Assembly (NCBI GenBank): GCA_035528115.1
Contig: DATKZF010000003.1
Location: forward strand, 292,651 to 356,650
Direction: 5' to 3'
DNA length: 64,000 bases
Origin: Candidatus Bipolaricaulota bacterium
Lineage (GTDB): Bacteria > Patescibacteriota > Patescibacteriia > UBA11705 > DATKZF01
In this document: positions 17,373 to 62,501 of the stretch, one piece after another
How positions within the stretch are numbered: the first letter of the stretch is position 1
How the letters are laid out: every line of letters begins with the position of its first letter
Made by a program: the position numbers and the translations under genes
Notes under the pieces: generated by a model
The model's input: only the letters and a program-made list of their open reading frames with translations
What the model was told of the DNA's origin: nothing
Database searches by the model: none

Positions 17373-17590
17373 TAAATCCAGCGGCATCGGTATTGAGGCT
17401 TGAACATTGAAATTCGTTATATCGAAATTCGAAATTGGCTATGGAAATTCGAGGTTCGAGATTCGTTTTAACCGATTTCCGACGTTCTATTTTCTATTAC
17501 TCTTCAGCTTCGCTCAGGACGGACGATTTTTCCTTCTAATTTGTAACCATTTGTAATATTTGTATTGATTTGTAAATTTGTAACCCCAAC

Positions 17591-21941: not shown

Positions 21942-22010
21942 TGTTAGAGGGCTAATGTTAGGAATTACATCCACCTTTGGCCTTATGCTTGAGAAGATTG
22001 TATTTCGTAA

Positions 22011-22052
22011 CACTGTATTGAAAAAGCCCAATGGTCATGACCAAAGGGCTTT
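22011..22052 (-). terminator. Intrinsic terminator of the island-3 gene
   Basis: aaagccc...gggcttt hairpin followed by a T-run on the minus strand. Confidence 0.65.
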
Positions 22053-32849: not shown

Positions 32850-32960
32850 TTCGACTCGCCCTCGGTGCCACTCGGGCTCGCTCATGGTGTGCCACCACCT
32901 GAATGTACGAAGTGAGGCGAGTGCCCTGAGTTTATGGAAGGGTTTTTTTATTTTTGTTTG
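32850..32960 (+). repeat. tRNA 3'-trailer element (class 1) copy
   Basis: TTCGACTCG...CTCGCTCATGGTGTGCCACCACCTG...GAGGCGAGTGCCCTGAG followed by a terminator-like hairpin and T-run. Confidence 0.7.
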
Positions 32961-40300: not shown

Positions 40301-40430
40301 AACCGTTCGGCCCGACAATGGCCGTGACACTGTTGGCCGCTTTGTCTTTGTGCGATTTTTCCGGAAATTCCAAGACCGTCTTTTTGGCGAACGATTTAAA
40401 TCCTTGGATTTCTATTTTTGATAAATACAT
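37371..40430 (-). CDS. smc: Chromosome segregation protein SMC
   Basis: N-terminal GPNGSGKSN, long coiled coils, C-terminal LSGGE...DEVDAALD. Confidence 0.9.
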   Translation of the reverse strand: MYLSKIEIQGFKSFAKKTVLEFPEKSHKDKAANSVTAIVGPNGSGKSNISDAVRWVLGEQSLKLLRGKKSEDVIFSGSPSLARQGFAEVSLFLNNEDKKLPIDYSEVAITRRVYRDGEGEYLINKNKVRLFDILMLLAKANFGQKSYSIIGQGMVDYVINISPTERKEFFDEATGIKQYQIKRDQSVNKLRRSRENLDQSNGILAELEPRLKSLTRQVKKLEKRKELEAALKDLQEKYYGYLWKDLSGKRKNYNREYQVQEKVRAEAAAELGELQRQLAELARQESRKDLFYNLQKEYNKLQAEKNQMLGDLTVLKGKSNLEYSKLGKQNISWMEEKKEEVLSRINEVSESLSHLQTKLEHQRGMLAEKQDCYQEVLKNITLFSNNLEAAQNDLAKIKGRGGQGFSSNQQAVAAILRQQNHLKGIFGSVSQLGKVDEKYQIALEAASGGRLGSIVVKDEDAAIRCINYLKENRLGIATFLPLTKINPFESRSDHKNILAERGAIAKAIDLVSFDPQFKKIFSYVLGDTIVVDEMNSAKSIGFGAVRMVTLDGDLVEKAGSIRGGFRRIREAVFSFGAKAAIAEISQETKMQEIETLKNKLNNSSREKEILINEINDLKVNIEVNDTKEKGLKNDLGGLSVEKRKVVMELEENKLSPKDQPKFLVEVSRQKKELEDRLQSLEKKILVSKEKMDRFNLEEEKKTAQVFKLQEEMQKKQAEVNEITDKVNQAKIMLAKLEAKAEDLSREIGQELGDSINPDNLPEPKGQLNIDQLWHEIGKIKHDLDLIGGIDPEIVGEYSEVKERYEFLSGQLKDLEKAIADLEQIIIELDKVIRGQFESSFKKINKSFSEYFQKIFQGGKAKLSLVQSEESSKDEKIPQIEGQVVEEPVEKEYFDKKYKPVNQGIDIMVSPPNKKIVHITALSGGERTMTSIALLCAIIDSNPSPFVVMDEVDAALDEANSERFANIINELSYKTQFLVITHNRVVMHSADILYGVSMGDDGVSRVLSIDLKEAEKIEAK

Positions 40431-40439: not shown

Positions 40440-40680
40440 ATTACGATATGTCCTGGGTCATGGATCACGTAACAATGAAGCATCGTTACTAATTACATTC
40501 ACTAAAAAGCTCTTTATTTGTATTGTTACAAATTACATTCATCAATGGCTTTAAACCTGAGAATCTTGTAATTAGTAACAAATTACCTAAAAGCTAAATA
40601 GTCGATTGTAATTCGTAACAGAAAGCTAAATAGAATCTTGTAATTCGTAACAAACCAATTATACAATTAATATTATAGCC
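40440..40680. repeat. Repeat region A of the TTGTAATTCGTAACA family, with about 2.5 tandem ~36-bp units
   Basis: Imperfect inverted copy of 56380..56600; tandem units aaagctaaatag..cttgtaattcgtaaca. Confidence 0.7.
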
Positions 40681-40757
40681 CATTTCAAACCTCCGAACAA
40701 GCCCGCCATGTAGATATTTTCAAACAAAAAAGAGGCGGAAATGGCCTCTTCTTCAAA

Positions 40758-43574
40758 TTATCTCAAGGTTATTGGAATTGCGCTGGTCGCGTGAGTCTGC
40801 CCCGCTTTATCAATGATTTGCGCGCTGATGGCATAGCTGCCCGAGCCGGGAAAATCAGTCCAGGAGACAAAAACCGTCTTCGAATCCGGATTTTGAACGG
40901 AACCGATTTCGGTCGAATCGTAAAAAAACTTCACTTCCTTGGTTTGACTCAAATCGGTCAACCGCCCCTTCACCACCAAAGGGAAATTATCAATCGAATA
41001 ATCGCCGCCCACCGCCGGGAACATCCAGGTCATGCTCGGAGCCGGCCGATCGGCTTTAATATTTATGTCAATCGATGTCTCGGCGAAATTATCAACGTCA
41101 TCGTAGGCGATCGCTTTCAAATTATGGTAACCGTTGACCGTATCGGATTTAATTTGATAATAAAGAGAATAAGGAGCGCTGCCGGCCGTAAAGATATAAT
41201 CGTTGTCCAAATAATATTCAACCCGGCGAATCCCGCGCGGAGCGTTGGCGAAAATCTGAGCCGATAAATTCAAATCCGTTATATCTTGCCCGCTTTGCGG
41301 CGAAGTGAATCTGACGGTCGGCTTTAATTCCGGCAAATGAACATCATCATATTCCGTGGGAGCTTTGGCGAATTCCAATTCTTTGCCCTCGGCCTTGGCT
41401 TTCTCGGAGGCTTTATCAAGCCAAGCCTGCACCGCCGCTTCCCAATTTTTATATTCGGGATCGAAATTATTTTCCGTCGGCGCCGAGCCCAACGGATCTT
41501 CTTTTCTGATATAATGCAAAATATTGTGAACTTCCATGAAGGTTTTTTCTTCAATGGCTGAAGCGGGCGTGTATTCCGTGGCCAACTTGCCGCTGAACTT
41601 ATCTATTTTTTCCGTTTTTTCCGCGGTATAACTGCCGTTTAAAATCGCTTTATCCGTTTTCGGTTTGTTGTAGCCCGCGAAACTCTCCATGGGCAAATCT
41701 TTGACCGCTTCCGCCATATAAGCGTGCCAGATCGGCGCTGCCACAACGCCGCCGGCCGCGCCTCTTTTCATTTCGCTGTTATCATTATTGCCCACCCAGA
41801 CGCCGGCCACCAAATTGGGCGTGTAGCCCATGGTCCAAGCATCGCGATAATCATTGGTGGTGCCGGTTTTGGCCGCGACGGGCCGGCCGCCCAAAGTCAA
41901 CGGATTTTGAGTTCCGAAAACGTATGCTCGCGCTTCATTGTCAGACAAAACACTGCTGATCATGCGCGAAATATTGGGATCGATCACGTCTCTGGGATCG
42001 GGATCTTCGAATTCCTCGATCAATTGACCGCCATTATCCTCTATTCTTAAAATCGCGACTGACGGCACGTATTTCCCCTCGTTGGCGTAAACCGCGTAGG
42101 CGTTGGCGTGTTCCAATAATTCGACTTCGCCGCCACCCAAAACGAGCGCCAAGCCGAAACGGCTGCGATCCTGAAATGAAGTATAACCGAATTTTTCCAA
42201 TAAATTTATAACATTGTCCACGCCGGACAAATACAGCGCTTTGACCGCCGTAGTATTGAGCGAGCCGGCCAAAGCCTTTCTGATGCTGACCGGACCTCTT
42301 TCGGCATTGTCATAATTGTGCGGAGTGTACGGCTTGCCGCCGGTGCTGAAAGTGGTCACTACGTCGAATAAAATGCTTTCCGGAGAAAATCCTTTTTCAA
42401 ACAAGGCGGAATAAACCATTGGCTTAAGCGATGAACCGGGCTGCCGAGGCCTGGTGGTCACATTAACTTGGCCATCAATGGAATCGTCAAAAAAATCTTT
42501 GGAACCGACCATGGCCAGAATCTGTCCTGTTTTCGGATCCAAAGAAATCAAGGCGGCATTGGAAAAACCGTATTGCTCGCCTCTGGCCTCCACGCCTTCG
42601 GTCACCGCTTTTTCCGCTATCAGCTGTTTGTCCAAATCCAAGGTGGTGATGACTTTTAAACCCTCTTCCAATGTTTTCTCTCCGTATTTTTCAGACAATA
42701 ATTCTTTGACATACATGACAAAGTGCGGCGCGATGATGCTTTCCGATTTTTGTTGAAAAGAAATCTCCTCTTTTTTGGCTTCATCGGCCTGCTCTTGAGT
42801 GATGTAACCCTGTTCGGCCATCTTATCCAAAACAAAATGCTGGCGATTGATCAATTCATCTTGATTGCTGCCGTAAGGCGAATAATAGCTCGGGCGTTGC
42901 GGCAATGAGGCCAAAAGAGCGCTCTCGGCCAATGTCAAATCCCGGACATCTCTGCCCAAAAAAGTCTGAGAAGCCGCGGCGATGCCGTAAGACACCGACC
43001 CGTAAGGAATTTCATTCAAATACATTTGCAATATCTGGTCCTTGGTAAATTTCTTTTCCATCTGATAAGACAAAATCAATTCTTTTATTTTTCTGGTGTA
43101 AGTTTTTTCCGAAGTCAAAATCGCGTTTTTCACGAATTGCTGAGTAATGGTCGAGCCTCCGCCGCGCGAACCGCCGAAAATCACCGCGCGCAAAACTCCG
43201 GTATAACTGAATCCGTGATGCTTATAAAAATCTTTGTCTTCAACGGCTATCGTGGCCCATTTGACCGTGTCCGGTATCTCTTCGATCGGCACCAAAGTTC
43301 TTTTCTCTTCGCCATGAACTTCATACAAAACGGTCTGGCCGGTGCGGTCGTAAATTTTCGTGCTTTGAGCGATGTCTCGCTCCATTATTTTGTTCGGATC
43401 GGGCAAGTCGCGCGAAAACCAGGCGAAAGCGCCGATTAAACAAATCACGCCGATAACAAAGCAAAAAATGCCGGCCAAAATCAATCGGCGAAGCCATAAT
43501 TTATAATCGAATTTGCCTCTTTTTTTCGGCTGGCGGTCCAGCGTGCTTTTAGATTTGATATAAGGAATCGGCAT
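40758..43574 (-). CDS. Bifunctional class A penicillin-binding protein (PBP1A-type) with a C-terminal beta-rich extension
   Basis: Transglycosylase GSTITQQ motif; transpeptidase SxxK and KTGTT motifs. Confidence 0.88.
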   Translation of the reverse strand: MPIPYIKSKSTLDRQPKKRGKFDYKLWLRRLILAGIFCFVIGVICLIGAFAWFSRDLPDPNKIMERDIAQSTKIYDRTGQTVLYEVHGEEKRTLVPIEEIPDTVKWATIAVEDKDFYKHHGFSYTGVLRAVIFGGSRGGGSTITQQFVKNAILTSEKTYTRKIKELILSYQMEKKFTKDQILQMYLNEIPYGSVSYGIAAASQTFLGRDVRDLTLAESALLASLPQRPSYYSPYGSNQDELINRQHFVLDKMAEQGYITQEQADEAKKEEISFQQKSESIIAPHFVMYVKELLSEKYGEKTLEEGLKVITTLDLDKQLIAEKAVTEGVEARGEQYGFSNAALISLDPKTGQILAMVGSKDFFDDSIDGQVNVTTRPRQPGSSLKPMVYSALFEKGFSPESILFDVVTTFSTGGKPYTPHNYDNAERGPVSIRKALAGSLNTTAVKALYLSGVDNVINLLEKFGYTSFQDRSRFGLALVLGGGEVELLEHANAYAVYANEGKYVPSVAILRIEDNGGQLIEEFEDPDPRDVIDPNISRMISSVLSDNEARAYVFGTQNPLTLGGRPVAAKTGTTNDYRDAWTMGYTPNLVAGVWVGNNDNSEMKRGAAGGVVAAPIWHAYMAEAVKDLPMESFAGYNKPKTDKAILNGSYTAEKTEKIDKFSGKLATEYTPASAIEEKTFMEVHNILHYIRKEDPLGSAPTENNFDPEYKNWEAAVQAWLDKASEKAKAEGKELEFAKAPTEYDDVHLPELKPTVRFTSPQSGQDITDLNLSAQIFANAPRGIRRVEYYLDNDYIFTAGSAPYSLYYQIKSDTVNGYHNLKAIAYDDVDNFAETSIDINIKADRPAPSMTWMFPAVGGDYSIDNFPLVVKGRLTDLSQTKEVKFFYDSTEIGSVQNPDSKTVFVSWTDFPGSGSYAISAQIIDKAGQTHATSAIPITLR

Positions 43575-43637
43575 AATATTTAAGTTAAATTTACCGCAAT
43601 TTACAGTTTAGCAATATTCGTCAAATTTGCAAATCAA

Positions 43638-44702
43638 TCATCTTTTCGCCGAGCCACGACTCTTTTTACTTGGCTTTTTTCGCTTTAATTTCTTCACGGT
43701 CTCCGGATACAGCTGATCTATAATCGCTCCCGCGGCATTGCGAGGTTTTCCGGAGTACGGTTCATGATGAATACTGAGCATTGGCGAATCATTGACTTCA
43801 ATAATGATATAATTTTTTTTGTTTGGCTTTTTGGTGACATCGGTTGTCAGATAATCGATCCCGCCAAAACCCAGACCGGGAATTGCTCTGATTACTTTCA
43901 CGGCCAATTTTTTCACTTCCGGATGAATATCTTCAGTCGAGTCATAACTGTCCCCGCCCGTGGATATATTGGAATTGGCTCTCAAAAAAATTTGCTCTCC
44001 TTTTTTTGGAATACAATCGAGATTCTTTTTTTGTTTTTTCAAATTCATTCTGACCGCCTCGTCAACTTTTATTTTAACCAGACTTTTTTCATGACTCATC
44101 CCCCTTCTGGTATCCATATTCTTTTCCTTAATCAAATCCTTTATCGTGTGAAAGCCGTCTCCCACCACATTGGCGGGCACTCGAAGCGTCGCGGCCACGA
44201 ATTTATCCTTCGTTGCCAATAAACGATACTCTTTGCCGAAAAACATTTTTTCCACGATAATTTTTTTAAATTTGGTGTTTTTGAATTCCGCCAAAGCCGC
44301 TCTGACCTTTTGATCGGAATTCAAATCAACAAAAACATGTTTTCCCTGAATGCCGCTCAAGGGCTTAATAACGACGGGAAATTTAATTTTATGACAAAAA
44401 CTTAATATTTCTCGACTGTCGCTATAATTAAAAATTTGTCCTTCAGACACGTTTATACCGGCTTTTTTGAAAAAAAACTTGGCCAATTGCTTGTTTTTTT
44501 GAATCCAATAAGCGATGCAATCCGTTTTAGATGTTCTCTGGCCAACGATTATTTCGCGATGTCCTTTATAATTCAATTCCAACAAACTGTCCTTGGCCAT
44601 CGGCCCCTCCGTAAAAATTTTATTTACCTCAATTTCCCTGTCTTCCGATTCTTTGGCGAGAAGATATGTGCTGGACTGTAAAAATTGCCACGGTTTTAAC
44701 AT
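43638..44702 (-). CDS. ATP-grasp domain protein (cyanophycin-synthetase/RimK-like ligase)
   Basis: FPVVIKPLSGIQGKHV; C-terminal IIIEVNDSP. Confidence 0.55.
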   Translation of the reverse strand: MLKPWQFLQSSTYLLAKESEDREIEVNKIFTEGPMAKDSLLELNYKGHREIIVGQRTSKTDCIAYWIQKNKQLAKFFFKKAGINVSEGQIFNYSDSREILSFCHKIKFPVVIKPLSGIQGKHVFVDLNSDQKVRAALAEFKNTKFKKIIVEKMFFGKEYRLLATKDKFVAATLRVPANVVGDGFHTIKDLIKEKNMDTRRGMSHEKSLVKIKVDEAVRMNLKKQKKNLDCIPKKGEQIFLRANSNISTGGDSYDSTEDIHPEVKKLAVKVIRAIPGLGFGGIDYLTTDVTKKPNKKNYIIIEVNDSPMLSIHHEPYSGKPRNAAGAIIDQLYPETVKKLKRKKPSKKSRGSAKR

Positions 44703-44739
44703 AGAGTTTGAATTTATTTTTTAAGGGAAATATCTTCAG

Positions 44740-45630
44740 CTACTTTTTCTCGCGATATACTTTTTCTAAAAACTTAATAATTCTATCCGCGATATTTATG
44801 CCGGTGACCAAAGACAATCTTTCAAAACCCGGGCAGCGATTGACCTCCAGTATATAAGGTTTGCCGTCCCGATCATAAATCAAATCCACCCCGGCAATGT
44901 CGGTATTGGCGGCTTTGGCCGCTCTGACGGCCAAGTCTTTTTGTTTTTTGCTCAAAACATGTTTTTGGCTGCGTTGTGCAAGCGGCACCCGATGATTTTT
45001 AAGATAACTCAATGTATAGCGCTTTATTGACCCGACAGATTCATTGCCGATAACAAAAACTCTGTAATAATGATCCGCCTCTATAATTTCCTGAATAAAA
45101 AAATCATTTATCTTGTGTTTGCTCAAAAATTTCAACAACTGATTATTGCTGTTCTCATTGAAAATATTTTTTCCATGCATGCCCTGAATATCCTTGACCA
45201 ATACCGGAAAAGGCAGTTTAACTCCGCTTTTCTTGAATTCTTTGATGTCGGAAAAATACCAACAGTCGGGGCAAGGCAGCCCATGATAGCTGAGCGCGGC
45301 ATAGCCGAACATTTTGTCGAATACATATACTTTGCGGTACAATTCACGATCAACCACTTCTTTGCCGCAACGCTTGAGGTATTTGGCAATGGTATGCGCT
45401 TTTTCCATATACGGATAAATGCCGCGGATCAAACAAATATCAAAGTCCCGGATGTCTTGCCTGCCGATCTTCACGATAAATTTTTTATCCTTTAAAACAA
45501 AACAAAAATCAACAATGGACGCCAGCTTAACCCGATGACCGCGAACTTTGACCGCTTTGGCCAGCGCTCGATTGGCATAATTTTCAGGTCCCACTATGAG
45601 TATTTTCATAATATTATTTAGACGGATCAA
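44740..45630 (-). CDS. RimK-family ATP-grasp ligase
   Basis: PVLVKDIQGMHGKNIF and GVDLIYDRDGKPYILEVN motifs. Confidence 0.75.
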   Translation of the reverse strand: MIRLNNIMKILIVGPENYANRALAKAVKVRGHRVKLASIVDFCFVLKDKKFIVKIGRQDIRDFDICLIRGIYPYMEKAHTIAKYLKRCGKEVVDRELYRKVYVFDKMFGYAALSYHGLPCPDCWYFSDIKEFKKSGVKLPFPVLVKDIQGMHGKNIFNENSNNQLLKFLSKHKINDFFIQEIIEADHYYRVFVIGNESVGSIKRYTLSYLKNHRVPLAQRSQKHVLSKKQKDLAVRAAKAANTDIAGVDLIYDRDGKPYILEVNRCPGFERLSLVTGINIADRIIKFLEKVYREKK

Positions 45631-47014
45631 CCAAAAATCGCTGCAAATCGCGGCGACCGATGATCGCCTGATAAGCCAGCTCTTTTCGACTGACGACCGA
45701 GACGCGGGTGTTAATATCGAAACCGGATAAATTAATGGTCACCGGCACTTCGATGCGGTAAGTGGCGCCGTGGCTGCTCAAGGTCTTGGCCACGGCCACG
45801 ATGTCGGGGTGTTTTTCCAATTCTTTGAAAACTTTTTTCGCGGACAGCTCCTCCATTTCTTCCCTGGTCAGGACGCTTTTGATGTTGAATGAATTGTAAT
45901 AATCAATCGCTTCTTGAAATCCCAGCTCAATGGCCAATTCTTCGTCAATCGCGGAAATACCCGCTCCGGTGTCTATCTTGGCTTCGATTTCAACCGCTTT
46001 GGTTTTATTCTTGCCTAAAATTTTAACTTGCTCAATAATGCCGACCACTTGTTTGCCGGAAATTTCTTCAATCTCTTGCTCCACGTCTCCGCCGAAAAGT
46101 TCTTTGGCCACCTTAATACCCTTGGCCACTGTTTTTATTTTCAAACCCTGCACTCGAAGCAAACGTTCTTTGAGCGGCGCCATATTGGCGATCTGAATGG
46201 ATAAGCCCGGATGCGCGTTCAATTCCAAAATAACCGGCCCCTTTTCCCGATCAATGGCCACGTCGACTCCAAGATAATTCAATTTGGTGGCTTGTTGCGA
46301 CTCAATGGCGATTTCCAAAATCTTGTTCCAAAAAGGAATTTTAATGCCACTCATCGGAAATCTCGTGCCCGGCAGATATTCGATCAATTTGTTATTTAAA
46401 ATGGCGCGAGTGGTAATTCCCGTAGTGATATCAATGCCCACGCCGATGCCGCCCATGTGCAGATTGGCTTTGCCTCCCGAATCTTTGGTGGGCAGCCGCA
46501 GCATGGACATGACCGGCACGCCGTTGAACACGATAATGCGGATATCGGGAATGCCCTTATACGCGTAAAGTTTAAAACTGGGATGAATCTTCAATCTCTC
46601 CTCGAAAAAAGCGATGTCTGACGCGTGGCTTTTCGAATAATCACCGTCCAAGATATTGCTGGCATGCTCTTTGATTTCATCCAAGGTGATTTCCCTGTCT
46701 TTTGACATGATCCAAACGCCGTTTCTCTTGCGACCGAAGGTGACGATAATGCCTTCTCCGCCGAGTCCCATGTTGGGCTTTAACACAAAACTTGAAGGCA
46801 AAAGATCCCAGTCGAAATTATACAATTCTTGACGGTCTGAAATCACGGCGATCAAATCCGCGACGGGCAGACCGACTTCAAACAAGACCTCTTTCGATAA
46901 AAGTTTGTTGTCCGCGATTTTAACGGCAGAAGATTTATTGTATCTTCTGACAAATTGCAGGTTCCGGGCGTTCATGCCCAAAATACCTTTACTTTTTTTC
47001 AGCATCTTCAACAT
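45614..47014 (-). CDS. Alpha-L-glutamate ligase-like ATP-grasp fused to a zinc-protease/retropepsin-like domain
   Basis: N-terminal sugar-transfer-associated ATP-grasp pattern; C-terminal IDTGAGISAIDEELA...RIEVPVT. Confidence 0.6.
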   Translation of the reverse strand: MLKMLKKSKGILGMNARNLQFVRRYNKSSAVKIADNKLLSKEVLFEVGLPVADLIAVISDRQELYNFDWDLLPSSFVLKPNMGLGGEGIIVTFGRKRNGVWIMSKDREITLDEIKEHASNILDGDYSKSHASDIAFFEERLKIHPSFKLYAYKGIPDIRIIVFNGVPVMSMLRLPTKDSGGKANLHMGGIGVGIDITTGITTRAILNNKLIEYLPGTRFPMSGIKIPFWNKILEIAIESQQATKLNYLGVDVAIDREKGPVILELNAHPGLSIQIANMAPLKERLLRVQGLKIKTVAKGIKVAKELFGGDVEQEIEEISGKQVVGIIEQVKILGKNKTKAVEIEAKIDTGAGISAIDEELAIELGFQEAIDYYNSFNIKSVLTREEMEELSAKKVFKELEKHPDIVAVAKTLSSHGATYRIEVPVTINLSGFDINTRVSVVSRKELAYQAIIGRRDLQRFLVDPSK

Positions 47015-48557
47015 TTTTTATAACCTTTCTAAATCTTATGTATTCGACCAATCTGATGCCGGCCCACTTGCCCAAAATCATATTGACGATAATGCACAAA
47101 AATATCACTTCGGGATAGCCGAGTAATATCGACTTGGTAAATTGCAAACTGGCGATCCAATAACAAAAGCTGGACAACACCAAAGTTTCCAGCGTCAGCA
47201 TGATCGCCGCCTTATTGCCTTTTTCAATTTGCACGGACACGAATTTTTCGGATAAAACAATGAGAATCAAAATCGGAAAAATGGAAATGGTGAGCATGCC
47301 GGCGTCTTTTATCATCGCGCCGCCAAGCAGCAAAGCGAAAATCGTTAAACTGACCAGGATCAAAATCAGCGCCATCCTGGGCAGATAAAGCAACCTTAAT
47401 TTTTTAGCCAGAATCCTGCCGATGCTGGCGATGGCGATAATAATGCCGAAAATAATCAAACCGTAAACAATGCCCGTGCCCAGAAACGATAAGGCGATGA
47501 TCGCGGGCGTATAAATGCCGAAGGCTTTAAATCCGATGAACTGCCGGCTGAATGATAAAATGGTGGCGATGACCGGCAAAACCAATAAAAGGTAAAGGGT
47601 GTTGATGGGCACGCCTTGATTGACCATGTAACTGATGGCGTAAGCCAAAAAATTCCAAGGCCGAAGCTGCTGTATTTCCCGCTGAGTATGAAGACCGATA
47701 ATCTGATACTCGATGTCGTCTTCTTTCAAATCGCGAAGCAATGAATCCAAATTAATAACCGTTACGGAGCTATTGATCGCGCTCTGGTCAGCCAAAACTA
47801 TAAATTGAGGTTCCACCAGATTGAACAATGTTTGCGCCAATCTGGAGGTGGAAGCGAATTTATTGGTTATGTTGATGATGACCTTGTTGGAAAAGCCGAA
47901 ATCGACCAAGCCCGTGCGGTCGGGAGACCCGGTGGCGCCCAACGCTTGCGCGGCGTCAATCATGGCATTGAGGCCGATATTGCCTTGCGTCCAAATAATA
48001 ATATTTTTCGCCTGTTTGATGTTTTCTTTTGATTCGATTATTTTTTGCGCCAACTCATTTTCCACGGCCAGGTCCAAATCCTTGGTTTCGTTTTTAATAT
48101 TCACGATCAAAATACCTTGGGTGCTGGAGATCATTTGCAGATTATTTATCTCTTCCGCGGAAATGGTGTGATCCGTGATTAAAATAATCAAATCTTTATC
48201 CACGGAAACAATAAATTGATCTACCGATTGTTCGTTGGTCAATTTATTTTGGAGAGTCAGGCTGGCTCGATAAAAACCCGGATTTTTGTAAGTGTAAACC
48301 GCTTCGCTGCCGGTCGCTCGTCCGTCATCGCCGAAATTCCAAATATATTCCACTTCCGAACCTTCGGGAACACTCGATCCGGCCGCTGAAAACAGCACCT
48401 GCCGGCCGACGACCACGTTACGGTCTCCGCCCGATACGGCTTTGAGGGGCACTTGCAATATTTCGCTTTGATTGTTTGTTTCAGCCGCGATCGCGGAATT
48501 TAATAACAGACCGCCGGCCATAAACGATAAAACCAACAAGGCTAAAAATTTTTTCAT
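46989..48557 (-). CDS. Secreted PKD-like domain fused to a 7TM membrane domain
   Basis: Signal peptide; VYTYKNPGFYRASLT PKD-like motif; seven C-terminal TM helices. Overlaps the ATP-grasp gene. Confidence 0.55.
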   Translation of the reverse strand: MKKFLALLVLSFMAGGLLLNSAIAAETNNQSEILQVPLKAVSGGDRNVVVGRQVLFSAAGSSVPEGSEVEYIWNFGDDGRATGSEAVYTYKNPGFYRASLTLQNKLTNEQSVDQFIVSVDKDLIILITDHTISAEEINNLQMISSTQGILIVNIKNETKDLDLAVENELAQKIIESKENIKQAKNIIIWTQGNIGLNAMIDAAQALGATGSPDRTGLVDFGFSNKVIINITNKFASTSRLAQTLFNLVEPQFIVLADQSAINSSVTVINLDSLLRDLKEDDIEYQIIGLHTQREIQQLRPWNFLAYAISYMVNQGVPINTLYLLLVLPVIATILSFSRQFIGFKAFGIYTPAIIALSFLGTGIVYGLIIFGIIIAIASIGRILAKKLRLLYLPRMALILILVSLTIFALLLGGAMIKDAGMLTISIFPILILIVLSEKFVSVQIEKGNKAAIMLTLETLVLSSFCYWIASLQFTKSILLGYPEVIFLCIIVNMILGKWAGIRLVEYIRFRKVIKNVEDAEKK

Positions 48558-48566
48558 ATTTTGTTT

Positions 48567-49070
48567 TTATTTCACTCTCAACATTTTTAAAGAATTTGAT
48601 GCGCAAATGGCCGCGGCCAGCGCGTCGGCCGCATGGCTTGGCGTCGGTAGAACGTCCATATTCAACAATATTTGAACCATTTTTTGAACTTGTGTTTTGT
48701 CGGCTCGGCCATAAGCGGCCAAAGCCTGCTTTATTTGCAAAGGCGTAAAAACCAAAACGGGCACGCTTGCCAAGCTGGCGGTCAAACTGATCACGCCGCA
48801 CGCTTGACTGACTTTCAAGGCACTTTTGGCATTCTTGGCGAAAAAAAGATCTTCGACGGATAAGTAGTCGGGCCGATATTTTTTAATAAGCTCTCCGAGC
48901 TTTTTGTGAATTTCAAGCAACCGATGGGAAAATTCAAGACCGCTTTCGGTATGAATACAGCCGTACTCCAACAAGGAATCTTGCCCGAGGATATTTGAAA
49001 TAACGCCGTAACCGGTGTCCGCCAAACCCGGATCGACCCCCAAAATAATTGTGGATTTAATTTTTGGCAT
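48567..49070 (-). CDS. ruvC: Crossover junction endodeoxyribonuclease RuvC
   Basis: ILGVDPGLADTGYGVI ... SHAADALA. Confidence 0.85.
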   Translation of the reverse strand: MPKIKSTIILGVDPGLADTGYGVISNILGQDSLLEYGCIHTESGLEFSHRLLEIHKKLGELIKKYRPDYLSVEDLFFAKNAKSALKVSQACGVISLTASLASVPVLVFTPLQIKQALAAYGRADKTQVQKMVQILLNMDVLPTPSHAADALAAAICASNSLKMLRVK

Positions 49071-49782
49071 TTGAATACACGCAGCTTATATCATCCGAGT
49101 CTTCCAGCGCTTCGATTATCTCTTCAAGCTTGGCCTTATCATCAGCCGATATTTCAACTTTTTCTTTGGAGATCCATTCGAGACCCGCGTAATCCGGCGA
49201 CAGGCCGGCTTGCCTGATTTCATTTTCCAAATTTTTCAAATTCTCGCGCGTCGTCAAAACCGTTAACCCGCCCTCTTCCGATTTAACGTCATCAGCTCCA
49301 AAATCTATGATTTCCAGAGCCACCTGGTCTTCTGATTTGCCAGCCAAGGCGTCCGCCGGTACTCTGATCACGCCTTTTTGTTCGAACATCCATTTCACCG
49401 AGTTGGCGCCGCCGAGAGCGCCGCCCATTTTATTGAAAACAGCCTTCACGTCGGAAACGGTTCGGTTGCGATTGTCCGTGGTTCCCTCGATTAAAAGTCC
49501 GACGCCCGCCGGACCGAAAGCTTCGTATAAAACTTCTTCGATAACATCTCCTCCCAGCTCTCCCGCGCCTCTGGCAATGGCTCTCTCGATGTTGTCTTTG
49601 GGCATATTGCTCGCGCGCGCTTGGTCAATGGCCAGCCGCAACTTAAAATTGGCCTCGGGATCTTTCCCTTCCCTGGCCGCCAGGATAATATTTCGCGCCA
49701 ATTTCGTAAAAACCGAAGCTTTCTTTTTGTCTGACGCTTCTTTTTGCCTGTGGGTCGTTGCCCACTTGGAATGGCCTGACAT
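49057..49782 (-). CDS. yebC: YebC/PmpR-family transcriptional regulator
   Basis: MSGHSKWATTHRQK start. The ORF-track N-terminal extension is spurious. Confidence 0.85.
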   Translation of the reverse strand: MSGHSKWATTHRQKEASDKKKASVFTKLARNIILAAREGKDPEANFKLRLAIDQARASNMPKDNIERAIARGAGELGGDVIEEVLYEAFGPAGVGLLIEGTTDNRNRTVSDVKAVFNKMGGALGGANSVKWMFEQKGVIRVPADALAGKSEDQVALEIIDFGADDVKSEEGGLTVLTTRENLKNLENEIRQAGLSPDYAGLEWISKEKVEISADDKAKLEEIIEALEDSDDISCVYSNAKN

Positions 49783-50171
49783 ATTCAAAAATAAAATATA
49801 AAATATAAAAAATAAAGAAAATGGAGGTCTTGCTTGAAATAAAACAAAGATTAGCGCCGCGAGGCTCGTATTAAATATACCAAAAACAAGTCTTAAAATC
49901 AAGCCGCCGGCACACTCAAGTATAGTTATACACACTTCTTAAATTTCTCTTGTTGCAAATTTTTCAAAAATTATGCAAGATAATAATAACACAAATTTGA
50001 ACTCGACTTTTATCGGCGGTATCGACAAGAAAAAATCAAAAACAGGAGGGGAAAATCTCTCTGTTTAAATAAAAACAAAAACGAAAATCTCCGCGGCCAT
50101 GCTTGGCGGAGATTTTCGTTTTATTCGTTAATTTGATGATATAATGATAAGGCAACGGGGCGCGGATATGC

Positions 50172-50213
50172 GGCCGCCGTAGAGACGCGCCGCGGCGCGT
50201 CTCTACGGCGGCC
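50172..50213. repeat. 42-bp perfect GC-rich palindrome (copy 2)
   Basis: ggccgccgtagagacgcgccgcggcgcgtctctacggcggcc. Confidence 0.85.
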
Positions 50214-50252
50214 CCCAAATGTTTCATGCAAAATATTTTCCCAAAAATAAAA

Positions 50253-51755
50253 ATGTCTCTTTTCTGGCAAACTATCATTGTTTTTTGTATCTCCTTGTTT
50301 TTATTTTCCCTGACCCAATTTCCCCACACGTTCTATGACCCGGACGGATTTTATCACGCCAAAATTTCCGAAACGATCGCCGAGCGCGGCCTTGTCAAAT
50401 CTTTTCCCTGGACGCAATTCGCCACGCTCAAAGACGGCTTTGTCGATCATCACCTCGGATTTCATCTGCTGATCGCGCCGCTAACCAAAATCTTCCCCTC
50501 GGAATACGCGCTCAAACTGGGCAACCTTTTCATCAATTCCGCTTTTGTCTCCGTATTTTTTCTTTTCCTCAAAAAAAATAAAATAAAATACTCCTGGCTG
50601 TTCACTTCATTTTTATTTCTAACCGCTCCGCTTTACGCCAGACTGAGCATGAATAAAGCCATTGGGTTGGCCCTGCTTTTGCTGATGTTTTTTATCTGGG
50701 CGCTTATGGCTGAAAAAAAATGGCCGTTGTTTTTCATCAGCGCTCTTTTTGTCTGCAGTTATGGCGGCTGGCCGATAAGCATTATCGTTTTAATTTGCTA
50801 TATCGTTGCCAGAATTCTTTTCCAAATAGTGGAAAATAAAAAAATGGATAAGAAATTAAAAAATCATTTACTCGGCGCCGCCTGCTTGACTTTGGCCGGA
50901 CTGGCGGCGGGCCTGGTGATCAATCCATATTTTCCGCAAAATCTGAATTTTTATTGGCAGCAAGTGGTTCAAATCGGCCTGATCAATTATCAAAATCAGC
51001 TCAACGTGGGCTCGGAATGGCTGCCTTATGATTTCATTACTTTGGCGGCCGGCACTTTTTTCCTCTGGGGCATTTTGATTTTTTCGCTGAAAGCGATTAT
51101 GGATCAAAAAGCAAAACTTAATTGGCGACACATTTTTCTGACCTTCTCTTTTATCATCTTTTTCGCCGTCACTTTGAAGTCGCGAAGGTATATCGAATAT
51201 TTCGCGCCATTTTTTATTCTCTACATCGCTTTTTTATCCCGTGAATTGGATTTGAAAAAATTGCTGGGAGGCCTCGGCGTCAAAATGAAATGGTTTTGCC
51301 TGTCTTTGACCGCTTTGTTGGCCGGACTGATCCTCGCCAATTTCAGCTCGACCATCCAAATATTTCAAACCAAGCACTCCGTTGACAAATTCAGCGGCGC
51401 CGCGGCTTGGCTGGCTGAAAACACGGCCGAAGGGTCAATTGTTTTTCACACCGATTGGGATGATTTTCCCATGCTGTGGTTTCACAATGACCGCAATTAT
51501 TATATCGGCGGCCTGGATCCGACATTCACCTATTTATTCAACCCGGAATTGTCGAAAAAATGGATGAGCATCTCTTCGGGCAGCCAAGCGGACGAACTTT
51601 ATCTAATAATTAAAAACGATTTTCAGGCAAACTATGTCTTTGTGGAGAAAAACAATCACGCGCTTTTTTTAAACAATTTGGAAAATAACTTTTTGGCTGA
51701 AAAAAAATTCGAAGACGCTGAAAGCGCAATTTTTCACCTTAAAAACAACGATTGA
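50253..51755 (+). CDS. Polytopic membrane protein, GT-C glycosyltransferase-like
   Basis: Multiple TM helices; start chosen at MSLFWQ. Confidence 0.5.
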   Translation: MSLFWQTIIVFCISLFLFSLTQFPHTFYDPDGFYHAKISETIAERGLVKSFPWTQFATLKDGFVDHHLGFHLLIAPLTKIFPSEYALKLGNLFINSAFVSVFFLFLKKNKIKYSWLFTSFLFLTAPLYARLSMNKAIGLALLLLMFFIWALMAEKKWPLFFISALFVCSYGGWPISIIVLICYIVARILFQIVENKKMDKKLKNHLLGAACLTLAGLAAGLVINPYFPQNLNFYWQQVVQIGLINYQNQLNVGSEWLPYDFITLAAGTFFLWGILIFSLKAIMDQKAKLNWRHIFLTFSFIIFFAVTLKSRRYIEYFAPFFILYIAFLSRELDLKKLLGGLGVKMKWFCLSLTALLAGLILANFSSTIQIFQTKHSVDKFSGAAAWLAENTAEGSIVFHTDWDDFPMLWFHNDRNYYIGGLDPTFTYLFNPELSKKWMSISSGSQADELYLIIKNDFQANYVFVEKNNHALFLNNLENNFLAEKKFEDAESAIFHLKNND

Positions 51756-53362
51756 ATCAAATGACCAAAAACATTTCGCAAATTATCAAAAGTTTTTCAA
51801 AAAAAGACTGGCTCTGTCTGTCTATTATTTCTTTGGTTTTGATTGCGATCGTTTCAATTACCTATATTTTCGGTTTGACTTCATCTGATGCCGATCATAT
51901 TTTCAACGGACGGCGCGCCACATCTCCCGGAGACACCTCGGTTTATTTTTCATACATCAATCAAGCGAAACAAGGCGACGGTTTTTTCATCAATCAATTC
52001 ACTTCCGAAAAAGACGAACTTAAAGTCTTCAATATCTTCTGGCTGATGGCCGGCAAATTCGCGGCCGTTTTCCGCCTGTCCGCGCCGGCAACCATGCTGG
52101 CGCTAAAAATTTTACTGGCGCCGATTTTTGTTTTATTTTGCTATGTCTTTTTGAGTTTGTTTTTTGAAAATAAACGCGTAAAGCGCCTCGCGCTGATTCT
52201 GATTTCATTTTCTTCCGGAGTCGGGCTTTGGTTCGGTTTTCTGAATGGAGAGCAAAATACTTTTTTGAAAGCGCCGATCGATCTGTGGGTGACGGAAAGT
52301 AATTTTTTCACTTCGTTTTTGCACTCGCCGCATTTCATTTTGGCCTGGACATTGCTTTTGATCGTTTTTTCTTTTTTCATTTTGGCCGTTCGAAACAATA
52401 ATTGGAAACAAAGCTTTCTGGCCGGCCTGACCGCGCTTTTTCTCTTTCAATTTCATCCCTATAATTTTCTGACGGTTTACGCGGTCTGCCTGACTTTCAC
52501 GATTTATGAAATTTTTCTTAAAAAAACATGGCGACCTTCGGTCCACTTTTTACTTCTGACCGTTGTTTCCGTTCCTTCCGTAATTTATCATTTTTTCACG
52601 CTTTCCGACACTCTCATCGCCGCGCGTTCCGCTCAAAACATCACCCTGACTCCCCCGCTCATTTACGTGGCTTTGGGCTTTGGAATATTTTTCCCTTTGG
52701 CGATTTGGGGCGTTTGGAAAATTTTCAAAAACAACATGGAAGACAAATATATTTTCCTTGTCATCTGGCTGTTGGTCGGTTTATTGCTGATATATTTTCC
52801 GGGTTTTCAATTTCAACGGCGCTTGCTTTTGGGTCTTCAAATTCCGATAATCATGTTGGCTTTCATCGGTCTTGGAAATTTCGTTGAAAAAACGGCTGAC
52901 AAAATAAAACGATCCAAACTGTCCGCCATGATCGCCGTGTATTTGGCCATGATTTTTATTTTGCCGACCTCTTTTTACCACCTTGCTTCCGATTTTTTAT
53001 ATTATTTCAATCACGAGCCTCTTTTCTATCAAACGTCCGAGCAAAAAAAAATCATTGAAGCAATAGAAGCGGACAATGGCCCGGTCAATATCATTATCTG
53101 CGAAGACATTCCTTTCGCCAATACTTTGCCGATTTATTTGCCGAATAAAATTTTTCTGGCTCACCTTCATGAAACGACTTTTTTCGAAAACAAAAAAAGC
53201 CTGCAAGCAAACTTTTTCAATCAAGCGATGACGCCGCTCGATGCTGAAAATTTTATTCGGAACAATTTTATCGAATATGTCATTTCAAAAAAACCGCTGC
53301 CTTATAATTTTCTGGAACCGATTATTGGCGGAGAAAAATATTTCTTATATCGAGTCAATTGA
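51752..53362 (+). CDS. Polytopic membrane protein, GT-C glycosyltransferase-like
   Basis: Multiple TM helices; 4-bp overlap with the upstream gene. Confidence 0.5.
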   Translation: MNQMTKNISQIIKSFSKKDWLCLSIISLVLIAIVSITYIFGLTSSDADHIFNGRRATSPGDTSVYFSYINQAKQGDGFFINQFTSEKDELKVFNIFWLMAGKFAAVFRLSAPATMLALKILLAPIFVLFCYVFLSLFFENKRVKRLALILISFSSGVGLWFGFLNGEQNTFLKAPIDLWVTESNFFTSFLHSPHFILAWTLLLIVFSFFILAVRNNNWKQSFLAGLTALFLFQFHPYNFLTVYAVCLTFTIYEIFLKKTWRPSVHFLLLTVVSVPSVIYHFFTLSDTLIAARSAQNITLTPPLIYVALGFGIFFPLAIWGVWKIFKNNMEDKYIFLVIWLLVGLLLIYFPGFQFQRRLLLGLQIPIIMLAFIGLGNFVEKTADKIKRSKLSAMIAVYLAMIFILPTSFYHLASDFLYYFNHEPLFYQTSEQKKIIEAIEADNGPVNIIICEDIPFANTLPIYLPNKIFLAHLHETTFFENKKSLQANFFNQAMTPLDAENFIRNNFIEYVISKKPLPYNFLEPIIGGEKYFLYRVN

Positions 53363-55094
53363 TCTTAAGCGGTTCGGTCAAATTTTCTATTTTTGAAAAA
53401 TTATTTTCGACGAAATATAAATTGTTCAAATACAAGCCGCCTTCGACTTCAACCGAATAGGCAAAAATTTCAGCGTCTTTTTCCCGCGAAACCGTCAATT
53501 CATCAGTAAACGGCCAAAACAGCCGTTTTTTTATGGTTTTCCCATCAATTTGATATTCAATCAGCATGGGCTTTTTATCTTCGCTTGCCTCAAAATTTTC
53601 AAGGTTGATTTTTACAAAATTAGCCTCATCAAAGGCAACCTCCTGTCCCGATTTTCCGTAAATCAAATATCTGTCTTTATTTTCCAGCAAAACAAGGCCG
53701 TTTTTTTTGATTTTTTCCAGCAACTCATCGCCACCGCTAGAATAATATTTTTGATAATACGGCCGATTGTCTTTTTGCAAATAAAAAGTCAGCAATTCGT
53801 CCTGATCAATGATCAAGTAATCCAACCCGGGCGTCTCGTATTTTTGATCGGAAAATTGTCGGTGGCCCCAAAAAATTCTGGTCGTTGAATAGACAACGTT
53901 TTTTTCGGACAAATAAACGGCCAAAGACGCGGGCGCGGCTACAATGGAATTTTCAATGGCCGTGGCCGGCGGCGCCGCCGCCGCCGTAGAGACGCGCCGC
54001 GGCGCGTCTCTACCCGCCCGCGCGAACGCGGGCGGCCACGGCCCGAAAAACCAATTTAAATAAATAATGGCCGCGATCAAAACAAACGGCGCCATTTTTT
54101 TGTAGGCGTTAAAAATAAAAATTTTGCCCGGCCGGTCATTTTTTAAAACCTCGATCAAAGCCAAATAGCAGGGAATAAAAAGCGGCGCGCCATAATGCAG
54201 ATTGGCGACCGGCGCGCCGAAGGCCAAGGCGATTTGCAAATAATAAAAAAGGCCGATAACCAGATATCTGGGACGCAGGAGCGGCAAAAAAACCAACGGC
54301 AAGAAAATCTGCACCAAAAGCTCCAGTTGTCCGAGGCTGAAAACGCGGCCAAGAACCGTGTGCCAATCAAAATAGACCAAAAATTTGCTGGCCTCGCCGT
54401 TAAAATGCTTTATCGTCAGCCAACCGATAATTAAAAACAATAGACTAGAAAAAATAGTCGTCAAAACCTTGGGAAAAAACAAGGCTTTTTGGAAACCGAC
54501 AATCCTTCTTTTTTCCAAAAAGATAAACAGAGCAAAGCCGAGTAGCAAAATTCCCATATCTTCCCTGATCAGCAAAGTCAAAAACAAAAAAACATAATAA
54601 CCGGCTTGATTGTTTTCAAGATAAAAATAGTACAGCCAAAAAAAGAAAAAGAACAAAAACGGCAAAAAGTGAAATTCGAACAAGTTCATGCCGATGATGA
54701 ACGGATTGAATAAATAGGCGATCAAAACCAAAATTGTTTTATTGAAATTTAAACTCTTTCGACAAATCAAATACAACGGCCAAGCTCCGAGGCCGATAAA
54801 CAACGTTTGCAAAAAGAGCAACAAAATCGGTGATTGTAAAAAATGATACAGCGGATAAAATATAAAAAACAAAAAGCTGAAATGGTCCGCAAAATACTGC
54901 GCTCCCTGCAAAGGCACGAACAAAAAATTGCCCGCGTCAAGACTTTGGAACGCCTGAAAAAAAATGGTCAAGTCAAGACCGTTATAAAGATGGTTGTGAT
55001 ATTTGAAAAGGCAAACCGAAAAAACAGCGGCCACGTAAACCGTGATTGAGCAAATTAGAATCACTTTGCGTTTCATATGACTTAATGATATCAA
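53355..55094 (-). CDS. Polytopic membrane protein (DUF2079-like) carrying an in-frame GC palindrome insertion
   Basis: N-terminal TM bundle; palindromic element at 53961..54040 encodes GRDAPRRVSTAAAAPPATA in frame. Confidence 0.5.
   Translation of the reverse strand: MISLSHMKRKVILICSITVYVAAVFSVCLFKYHNHLYNGLDLTIFFQAFQSLDAGNFLFVPLQGAQYFADHFSFLFFIFYPLYHFLQSPILLLFLQTLFIGLGAWPLYLICRKSLNFNKTILVLIAYLFNPFIIGMNLFEFHFLPFLFFFFFWLYYFYLENNQAGYYVFLFLTLLIREDMGILLLGFALFIFLEKRRIVGFQKALFFPKVLTTIFSSLLFLIIGWLTIKHFNGEASKFLVYFDWHTVLGRVFSLGQLELLVQIFLPLVFLPLLRPRYLVIGLFYYLQIALAFGAPVANLHYGAPLFIPCYLALIEVLKNDRPGKIFIFNAYKKMAPFVLIAAIIYLNWFFGPWPPAFARAGRDAPRRVSTAAAAPPATAIENSIVAAPASLAVYLSEKNVVYSTTRIFWGHRQFSDQKYETPGLDYLIIDQDELLTFYLQKDNRPYYQKYYSSGGDELLEKIKKNGLVLLENKDRYLIYGKSGQEVAFDEANFVKINLENFEASEDKKPMLIEYQIDGKTIKKRLFWPFTDELTVSREKDAEIFAYSVEVEGGLYLNNLYFVENNFSKIENLTEPLKIN
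53961..54040. repeat. GC-rich nested palindromic element (copy 3), located inside a CDS
   Basis: ggccgtggcc...gccgtagagacgcgccgcggcgcgtctctac...ccgcccgcgcgaacgcgggcgg...ggccacggcc. Confidence 0.8.
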
Positions 55095-55155
55095 ACATCA
55101 ACCAAACAAAAAAGCGCCCGCCAAAGACGGAACGCTTTCTTTTTCGCTTTCGTTA

Positions 55156-55572
55156 TTAAGCTCCCAAAGTCACATTGACCAATTCACCGACCACATAACT
55201 GGAAATGGCATAAGCCAACAAAACGATGACCAAGCCGATGATGCCGTTGATGATCCAGTCTTTGGCTTTTTTAACCTTTTCATCGGCTCCGCCGGCGGTC
55301 ATGTACAAAAAGCCTCCGTACAAGATGACCACGAGCAAAATAATGCCCATGAAAGTCAAAACGATTCTGATGATGTCGCCGATCACTACCGGCAAAGATC
55401 TTGACTCCGCTCCGAACTGATCGCCCGTCGTTCCCAATGTCCCGATAATGTCAGGCGTGCCCGCGGCGCCGGTGCTGTCGGCTAAAACCACTGCCGGCGT
55501 AACCAGCAACGCGATGGTTGCGAGCGCCAGTAAAGCCGGGACGAATTTTTTCAATGAAATTTTCGTACGCAT
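55156..55572 (-). CDS. VirB2/TrbC-like pilin-family protein (paralog 1)
   Basis: Signal peptide; two hydrophobic helices separated by the YMTAGG loop; KVKKAKDWIINGIIGL. Confidence 0.6.
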   Translation of the reverse strand: MRTKISLKKFVPALLALATIALLVTPAVVLADSTGAAGTPDIIGTLGTTGDQFGAESRSLPVVIGDIIRIVLTFMGIILLVVILYGGFLYMTAGGADEKVKKAKDWIINGIIGLVIVLLAYAISSYVVGELVNVTLGA

Positions 55573-55610
55573 AAATTTTTTAATTTATTGATATTTAAGT
55601 TAATTTTATT

Positions 55611-56000
55611 TTATGCCGCCGGGGGCAAACTGCCGCCCGTCGCTTCAATCATGCTTCTTACCACATAGTCTGAGATGGCGTAAGCCGATAGTACTATCGC
55701 TAAGCCGATCATGGCATTGATAATCATTTCCTTAGCTTTTTTTACCTGATTTGCATCCCCGCCGGCAGTCATCCACATGATGCCCGCATAAATTAATAAT
55801 AATAGTAAAATTACACCCAGCAAAGTCAAGATCACTCTAATTATTCTGCCCACGATGACCGCGATGCTCTCGGACTGAAGCCCTGCCTGATCGGCGGTTT
55901 GTTCTAATCCGGTCGCAATGGCCAGGGTTGGCTGAACGCAACTTGAAAAAAATATAATCGCCACGGACAATATAGTTATAATATATAAAAAATGATTCAT
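55611..56000 (-). CDS. VirB2/TrbC-like pilin-family protein (paralog 2)
   Basis: Signal peptide; IYAGIMWMTAGG; KKAKEMIINAMIGL. Confidence 0.6.
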   Translation of the reverse strand: MNHFLYIITILSVAIIFFSSCVQPTLAIATGLEQTADQAGLQSESIAVIVGRIIRVILTLLGVILLLLLIYAGIMWMTAGGDANQVKKAKEMIINAMIGLAIVLSAYAISDYVVRSMIEATGGSLPPAA

Positions 56001-56005
56001 ATTTA

Positions 56006-56374
56006 CTATGTTATACCTCCAGGCTGAATCTGCGAAAAAATATATTTTAGTATAGCATATGAAGCCAGCACTAAAATCAAACCAATTATCCCGTTAATTA
56101 TTATTGTTCTGGCTTTTTGCACTTTGGATTTAGCCCCCACTTGCAGGGTTATTGATCCGCCGGCGGTCATCCACAAAACTCCGCCGTAAATAATCATAAC
56201 CAAAAAAAGTACTCCAACAAATCCCAATGCATAATTCAAGATATTGCCGATAATTTCAGGCAACGCCTTGTCCGTCTGCAATTCCGCCTGACCCGCCGCC
56301 GTATTCAGTCCTTCTTGCAAGGCGCCGGCTTTGGCGCAGGAAATACCGACTAGTTCTTTTATCCATTGTCTCAT
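56006..56374 (-). CDS. VirB2/TrbC-like pilin-family protein (paralog 3)
   Basis: IIYGGVLWMTAGG; QKARTIIINGIIGL; no clear signal peptide. Confidence 0.55.
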   Translation of the reverse strand: MRQWIKELVGISCAKAGALQEGLNTAAGQAELQTDKALPEIIGNILNYALGFVGVLFLVMIIYGGVLWMTAGGSITLQVGAKSKVQKARTIIINGIIGLILVLASYAILKYIFSQIQPGGIT

Positions 56375-56379
56375 ATCGG

Positions 56380-56600
56380 TTACAAATTTACAAATCTTTT
56401 ACTAATGCACAAATTGTTACACGCTATATGTTACGAATTACAATATCCTATTTAACTTTCAGGTTATTTGTTACTAATTACAAGATTCTCAGGCTTAAGG
56501 CTATAGGTGAATGTCCCAATGGGATCACTTCGTGATACTTCGTAACAATACAAATAAAGAGCCATTTAGTGAATGTAATTCGTAACATCTTCTCGATTCA
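56380..56600. repeat. Repeat region B of the TTGTAATTCGTAACA family (inverted relative to region A)
   Basis: Reverse complement aligns to 40485..40600. Confidence 0.7.
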
Positions 56601-57056: not shown

Positions 57057-57084
57057 ATTTTTTATTACAAGATTACGAAATTTG

Positions 57085-57152
57085 CATACGAGATTGTACG
57101 GATTGGAATTATCTCGTATAATCTGTACACAAATCTGTAATCTCGTAAAAAC
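57085..57152 (+). repeat. Palindrome-rich ~70-nt element (copy 2)
   Basis: acgagattgtacggattgg...aatctgtaatctcgtaa, about 85% identical to 16248..16320. Confidence 0.7.
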
Positions 57153-62403: not shown

Positions 62404-62501
62404 TTTCATGTTTCATGTTTCATGTTTCATGTTTCATGTTTCATGTTTCATGTTTCATGTTTCATGTTTCATGTTTCATGTTTCATGTTTCATGTTTCAT
62501 G
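62404..62501. repeat. (TTTCATG)14 heptanucleotide microsatellite
   Basis: 14 perfect tandem units immediately 5' of tRNA-Ser, downstream of a TGcTATAAT -10 element. Confidence 0.95.

Follow-up and report, generated by a model that had tools for sequence, protein, structure and literature searches.

A probable family of modular palindromic repeats in a Patescibacteria genome, with copies upstream of smc, polA and a pilin gene

We analyzed a 64,000-nucleotide stretch (hereinafter, the window) of the genome of an uncultured bacterium of the Candidate Phyla Radiation (CPR; Patescibacteria), namely positions 292,651 to 356,650 of contig DATKZF010000003.1, in which two regions rich in a 15-nucleotide motif, denoted A (40484..40652) and B (56429..56587), are located upstream of the smc gene and of a pilin gene, respectively. 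The two regions are best explained as members of a non-coding, species-specific family of modular palindromic dispersed repeats similar to miniature inverted-repeat transposable elements (MITEs), BOX elements or REPINs, an interpretation that we consider probable. The members of this family share common ancestry, spacers included, and are found in unrelated intergenic contexts and in either orientation. The genomes of CPR bacteria are small and are usually described as repeat-poor and poor in mobile DNA; the present observations suggest that small non-autonomous repeats can colonize such genomes and insert into core-gene leaders, that of smc among them.

Organization and folding of the element

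The 15-mer TTGTAATTMGTAACA has 11 matches with at most two mismatches in the window compared to 0.27 expected, and none of 100 shuffled sequences reached this number. Eight of the 11 matches are in A and B (40484, 40524, 56429 and 56469 on the minus strand and 40566, 40606, 40638 and 56573 on the plus strand), in agreement with the original prediction from the sequence, which counted at least six across the two regions. The same prediction described A and B as imperfect inverted copies of each other, which we can confirm: the regions are inverted homologs with 86-90% identity, aligned in one arm of 92 nt (40535-40626 and 56423-56514, 86%) and another of 51 nt (40485-40535 and 56536-56586, 90%). 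They differ by a 22-nt insertion in B (56515-56536), which lies inside one of the sites and splits it, and by one additional tandem module in A. Tandem Repeats Finder detects a 32-bp unit repeated 2.0 times at 40590-40652, with a third module 40 bp ahead of it, so that the approximately 2.5 tandem units originally reported for A are real, but they are not immediately upstream of the smc start codon as claimed, being located 160-220 nt upstream of the ATG (40430, minus strand).

The element is built of modules of about 40 bp, each of which terminates in the 15-mer TTGTAATTNGTAACA, that is, two tandem heptads, TTGTAAT and TNGTAAC. The order of the parts is R1, a spacer of about 25 nt, R2 (TGTTACAAATTACAT), a conserved center of 27 nt (TCACCTATAGCTTTAAGCCTGAGAATC), F1 (TTGTAATTCGTAACA), the spacer AATAACCTAAAAGCTAAATAGAATA and F2. 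Copy A is in the plus orientation and consists of R1 (40484-40498), R2 (40524-40538), the center (40539-40565), F1 (40566-40580), F2 (40606-40620) and F3 (40638-40652). Copy B is in the minus orientation and includes F2 (56429-56443), F1 (56469-56483), the center (56484-56514), the insertion that disrupts R2, and R1 (56573-56587); degenerate GTAAC/TTGTAA units extend from B to position 56379, beside the ATG of the pilin gene. The copies differ in their module content, having one to four R modules and two or three F modules, with one or two extra R modules in copies from two further loci (L028 and L032, see below) and one extra F module in A. Full copies are 136-215 bp long, and none is located inside a long open reading frame. 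The outermost 15-mers are inverted with respect to each other (TGTTACGAATTACA...TGTAATTCGTAACA, with the ends 5'-TGTTAC...GTAACA-3') and, because the R and F modules point in opposite directions, act as terminal inverted repeats.

Comparison of 33 sites showed that 13 of the 15 positions are nearly invariant whereas position 9 is free (C, A or T). The sites are spaced by 39-42 bp, or about four helical turns. Pairwise identity among the copies is 84-93% for the sites, about 80% for the center together with the F spacer, and 47% for the R spacer. One copy has an R spacer that matches the reverse complement of the F spacer exactly, which indicates that the R modules are F modules in inverted, diverged form.

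The whole element is predicted to fold into a single long hairpin, with z-scores from -3 to -7.5 (-7.5 and -6.7 for copy A). The arms of this hairpin are invariant among the copies, without compensatory changes and with an unfavorable covariation term; given that the arms never vary, there is no covariation support for a selected RNA structure. A search of Rfam, at the gathering threshold as well as at E <= 1, yielded nothing relevant to the element.

A dispersed repeat family

A nucleotide profile built from six full copies and run with nhmmer against the window identified exactly three copies, A (E = 3e-34), B (E = 1e-35) and a third, partial copy (denoted C; E = 4e-11) that had been overlooked previously. 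Copy C (21954..22032, plus orientation) consists of an R site (21956-21970), the conserved center and an F site (21998-22012), and is located upstream of polA.

A metagenome scan with a 25-nt signature of the element, CNTGAGAANNTTGTANTTNGTAACA, revealed five more copies on another contig, Ga0307380_10000027, none of which overlaps the window, and examination of the respective loci (L027, L028, L030, L031 and L032) added one more copy, the sixth, and an isolated module fragment. Three lines of evidence indicate that this contig belongs to the same genome as the window: the Fmt protein encoded next to one of the copies carries the same (mislabeled) NCBI name of a metagenome-assembled genome (MAG) as the SMC and PolA proteins of the window; the sequence identical to the contig derives from the same sequencing run, SRR8554643; and the second repeat family of the window (see below) is present on this contig as well. 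The family thus counts nine or more members in this genome, fragments included.

The window matches, with 100% identity, a portion of a metagenomic contig of 438 kb (ENA ERZ27256828, k141_4005742). The organism is Falkowbacteria-like, with unlinked rRNA genes and, in the window, a cluster of T4SS_pilin (PF18895) genes. Its SMC protein is closest to those of the Falkowbacteria type; beyond the identical sequence, the next species show only 72-75% identity. The nhmmer profile found no copy in 60 kb of DNA from two such relatives (L023 and L026). Of the possibilities raised in the original prediction, a lineage-specific dispersed repeat is therefore the one supported by the distribution of the copies.

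Every good match to the 15-mer falls within a homologous copy of the element or a fragment of one, and the sites that are not surrounded by a full element are fragments of the same modules. Two additional tracts that had been considered related, 7770-7840 and 17530-17590, do contain TTGTAA and GTAAC words, but their homology to the element is not significant (E = 3.7 for 7774-7836; 17530-17590 was not detected by nhmmer). The latter tract includes a separate, TTTGTAA-rich 19-bp tandem repeat (17538-17585) that stops 5 nt before the -35 box of a strong rpsT promoter (TTGACA-17-TATTAT).

A scan of genome contigs for two 13-mers separated by 15-30 nt retrieved mostly heptamer microsatellites from other phyla and no member of the family. 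These microsatellites, (GTAACTT/GTAATTT)n, identify the 15-mer as a pair of heptads. Long arrays of this kind, (GTAACTT/GTAATTT/GTAACTC)n, adjoin gene ends in MAGs of Bacteroidota, Ignavibacteria, Elusimicrobia and Peribacteria, often beside other heptamer arrays.

Short contigs assembled at k = 31 (Logan assemblies) break inside the copies, and two independent contigs stop exactly 31 nt past the final copy-specific base, as is characteristic of a multi-copy repeat that has been collapsed. The break points of short-read assemblies of this organism are thus explained by these repeats.

Gene contexts and the insertion in the smc leader

Both A and B are upstream of genes on the minus strand, A between the terminator of the gene for PBP1 and smc, and B between two T4SS_pilin paralogs. 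In the family as a whole, the R end faces a gene start in A (smc), C (polA) and one of the copies in L028 (L028a), whereas the F end does so in B (pilin), L030 (a gene encoding an HD-domain protein), L031 (fmt, next to a fragment) and L032 (where the ATG is 10 nt past F2). The L027 copy is located between two convergent genes, directly after a terminator, and the second copy in L028 abuts, with its F end, the 3' end of a gene for a pseudouridine-synthase-like protein (3073-3771). These mixed contexts imply that the element has no orientation preference and is not restricted to promoters.

The smc gene (37371..40430, minus strand), located on the R-end side of copy A, encodes a protein of 1019 amino acids with the SMC_N and SMC_hinge domains. 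Its promoter (40672..40700, minus strand) consists of TTGTTC (40700-40695) and TATAAT (40677-40672) separated by a 17-nt spacer, and is preceded by the terminator-like hairpin and T-run of the PBP1 gene (40724..40749, minus strand; AGAGGC...GCCTCT TTTTT), which was recognized by reading the sequence and missed by the terminator scan, and has the same layout in the relatives. This terminator marks the beginning of the smc transcription unit. Both the terminator and the promoter (GCTTGTTy-N17-TATAAT) align among the window, L023 and L026. In the window, element A starts 19 nt downstream of the smc -10 box; in L023, where the element is absent, the smc ATG follows the -10 box by about 33 nt, and in L026, the smc leader is about 220 nt long and unrelated in sequence. 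Because the relatives without a copy retain the same promoter, A is an insertion between the smc promoter and the start codon. As a by-product, the smc mRNA would carry in its leader a stable hairpin of about 170 nt, with possible effects on mRNA stability or translation. The def-fmt spacer of the relatives was considered as a second empty site and discarded as uninformative because the spacers could not be aligned.

Copy C lies 14 nt upstream of the -35 box of the polA promoter (TTGAAA, 21941-21936; 17-nt spacer; TATAAT, 21918-21913); the polA gene (19174..21900, minus strand) encodes a protein of 908 amino acids. On the F-end side of B is the gene for a T4SS_pilin paralog of 122 amino acids (56006..56374, minus strand). 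In this protein, the signal peptide is missing the 11-residue hydrophobic core found in four paralogs; the protein may be a non-secreted form or the product of a pseudogene. The missing signal core is compatible with, although not proof of, a disruptive insertion of B.

An observation of a different kind at the smc locus concerns the relative L023 (7115-8240), where a gene for a TROVE (Ro60-like) protein is located between the PBP1 gene and smc. The 1.1 kb of non-coding DNA in front of this gene contains repeated units resembling GGGCAGTGTAGATAAGAGAT, possibly Y-RNA-like genes.

Mobility and similarity to known repeat families

Under the dispersed-repeat interpretation, the family would have spread either by transposition of a MITE-like element or through a copying mechanism of the BOX or REPIN type, with the phased 15-mers serving as binding sites of the protein that moves the element. 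Like MITEs, which measure less than about 600 bp, the element is small and non-coding, ends in terminal inverted repeats and is present in multiple dispersed copies, with none in 60 kb of the two relatives, distant as these are, and an empty smc leader in L023. Several observations weigh against this interpretation. The seven copies checked do not share a consistent target-site duplication: one is flanked by an 8-bp direct repeat (ATTTTAAA) in the A/T-rich context of a terminator, whereas the others share at most 4 bp, with no common length or sequence. Gene calls over about 115 kb of a genome of 0.4-0.8 Mb included no transposase or recombinase. The evidence of an empty site at smc comes solely from species with 72-75% SMC identity. 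Finally, conservation is somewhat higher in the sites than in the spacers, a pattern that would also suit binding by a host protein. Because a target duplication and a transposase are missing, membership among the MITEs is unproven. Searches of plasmid, phage and viral sequence collections gave no match to the element.

Correia elements (MITEs of Neisseria), RUP and Nezha are non-coding elements of 100-200 bp with terminal inverted repeats that reside in intergenic regions in either orientation, form hairpins and are often co-transcribed with a neighboring gene. The family described here resembles them in size, lack of coding capacity, inverted ends, dispersal, hairpin formation and occurrence in either orientation. 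Correia and RUP copies, however, are flanked by a TA target duplication and have a known or suspected parent insertion sequence, whereas here there is no consistent duplication and no transposase among the called genes, and the ends recur internally as phased 40-bp modules.

The BOX elements of Streptococcus pneumoniae (boxA-boxB(n)-boxC) contain a variable number of units of about 40-45 bp, form stable hairpins, are found in intergenic regions and leaders, and show no obvious target duplication or known mobilizing enzyme. All these features, namely variable modules, a stable hairpin, the placement, and the lack of an obvious duplication or known enzyme, are shared by the present family; BOX elements, however, combine three kinds of boxes, whereas here a single type of module is present in both orientations around a unique center. 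No sequence relationship is expected.

The REP/BIME/REPIN repeats, which are mobilized by RAYT transposases, are similar to the present family in that they pair short repeats in inverted orientation across conserved linkers, form extragenic hairpins and are present in numerous species-specific copies. A REP unit, however, is a short palindrome with a conserved GTAG-type head, in contrast to the non-palindromic 15-mer, in which two heptads are repeated directly. The available DNA (about 115 kb of the genome) showed no RAYT gene. A literature search on MITEs in the CPR yielded a single unrelated paper and no earlier description of such an element in this group; the element itself is of an ordinary kind.

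Alternative interpretations

Among the alternatives, the one that fares best, although we regard it as unlikely, is that the elements are cis-regulatory arrays in which the paired heptads are operators of a host protein, for example, a ribbon-helix-helix (RHH) protein of the type of omega, the ParB of plasmid pSM19035. Sites phased at about 40 bp would then nucleate a higher-order complex that co-regulates smc, polA, the pilin gene and others, a role that could coexist with a mobile origin of the element. The near-invariant tandem heptads of the 33 sites, their 39-42 bp spacing, their conservation above that of the spacers and the location of most copies upstream of a gene start all fit this possibility. 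Omega recognizes a 7-bp unit in either direct or inverted orientation, and RHH proteins bind heptad arrays in both orientations (PMC9499535). However, omega requires at least four contiguous heptads for full activity (PMC9499535) and acts on contiguous arrays of 4-10 heptads beside its own operon, whereas here there are only two heptads per site, with the sites 40 bp apart in a dispersed repeat. Furthermore, the homology between the copies runs through the spacers and the center, which operators do not need; one copy is between convergent genes; the copies face genes in either direction, neither being preferred; the orthologous smc promoters of the relatives lack such sites; and the sites outside full elements are fragments of the same modules. 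No small DNA-binding protein gene, and specifically no RHH gene, was recognized in the Pfam scans of the window proteins, in which small open reading frames were not covered exhaustively.

The suggestion in the original prediction that the motif is bound by a regulator of smc or pilin expression is not supported in the form in which it was made, given that the good 15-mers are all within copies or fragments of the element, which occur in both orientations and, in one case, between convergent genes. A regulon resembling that of LexA (SOS) or competence and including polA, smc, rmuC and the pilin gene was rejected as well, considering that the sites are inside homologous copies, that one copy is between convergent genes and that the motif is absent from the smc promoter of the relatives. 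A protein-binding role of the 15-mer is nevertheless plausible by analogy with the heptads of RHH proteins, and binding of a mobilizing protein appears more likely than binding of a dedicated regulator of smc or the pilin gene. A broader proposal, that the phased paired heptads are loading or operator sites of a host protein (RHH/ParB-like or a recombinase) and the elements are mobile regulatory, centromere-like or invertible modules, seems to us improbable; if it were correct, a reduced CPR genome would have gained shared control of smc, polA, the pilin gene and other genes.

It is quite improbable that the element encodes a structured RNA that would act on the mRNAs of smc and other genes as a small RNA or a leader element. 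Such a function would account for the strong predicted hairpins and for the presence of copy A within the predicted smc leader, but is at odds with the lack of an Rfam match even at the relaxed threshold, the absence of compensatory changes in the arms together with the unfavorable covariation term, the occurrence of copies in both orientations relative to transcription, and the lack of a consistent promoter or terminator.

We give slightly less credence still to each element being a small invertible switch (inverton), in which recombination between the outer inverted 15-mers would turn an internal promoter to face either way. The inverted 15-mers indeed flank a conserved asymmetric core, copies are found upstream of genes in both orientations, and our own reading of the alignment detects weak hexamers similar to -35 and -10 boxes in the F half (GTAACA-18-TAGAAT). 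Promoter scans, however, gave no consistent match, and a promoter function of the element was rejected because the results disagreed between copies. There is no recombinase gene near any copy; one copy is located between convergent genes; B and the L030 copy have the same orientation in independent assemblies; and the contig breaks are explained by repeat collapse.

The possibility that A and B serve as recombination sites bounding an invertible or mobile segment of 16 kb (40.6-56.4 kb), as was also suggested in the original prediction, is very unlikely despite their inverted arrangement and 86-90% identity because they are but two of at least nine family members, about half of all pairs of which would be inverted, because the cargo is housekeeping (PBP1, RuvC, YebC, ATP-grasp ligases), because the genes for DUF2079, YebC, RuvC, a 7TM/PKD protein, ATP-grasp proteins, PBP1 and SMC, all on one strand, have an identical order and direction in L026, a relative devoid of the element, because neither the segment nor its flanks showed a recombinase domain in their called genes, and because look-ups of the identical SMC and the identical pilin each returned a single long-contig arrangement, into which other long contigs had been collapsed as similar. 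The breaks of Logan contigs inside the elements were considered as a hint of inversion and set aside, being explained by repeat collapse at k = 31. The arrangement of A and B would then be a coincidence of two insertions in opposite orientations, and an inverted pair of such repeats should not be taken for an inversion switch. An origin of replication of the iteron type can be dismissed: cumulative GC skew falls monotonically across the window, showing no switch, there is no dnaA, rep or other initiator gene adjacent, and the same array is present at nine or more loci.

Other repeats and neighboring features

In addition to the element family, the window contains a second palindromic family with a unit of about 90 nt (16228-16318 and 57060-57150, with ends like TGTAATCTCGTAA), which is also represented by a partial copy in L031 (3018-3055). 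One of the copies is upstream of rmuC and another is between two pilin genes, and each is predicted to fold into a single hairpin (z from -4.6 to -9.6). A GC-rich perfect palindrome, GTAGAGACGCGCCGCGGCGCGTCTCTAC, is present in three intergenic locations (18021-18050, 50172-50213 and 53980-54013), at which short-read contigs stop. A single CPR genome thus holds a palindromic family of at least nine copies or fragments, a second family of about 90 nt and a GC-rich palindrome.

A conserved trailer of about 80 nt, TTCGACTCGCCCTCG...GCTCGGGCTCGCTCATGGTGT.CCACCACC, is located directly 3' of the genes for tRNA-Leu, tRNA-Phe and tRNA-Ala (14621-14702, 32850-32931 and, on the minus strand, 2270-2353). 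It has no Rfam match at the gathering threshold, and some of its sequence can base-pair with the tRNA 3' end. A lone gene encoding a Cas_csx3 domain (Pfam) is found at 782-1963, with no CRISPR array seen in the window. Runs of the heptamer CGAAATT are present at approximately 17400-17470, and 14 perfect tandem copies of the heptamer TTTCATG (62404-62501) stop 5 nt before the tRNA-Ser gene (62507).

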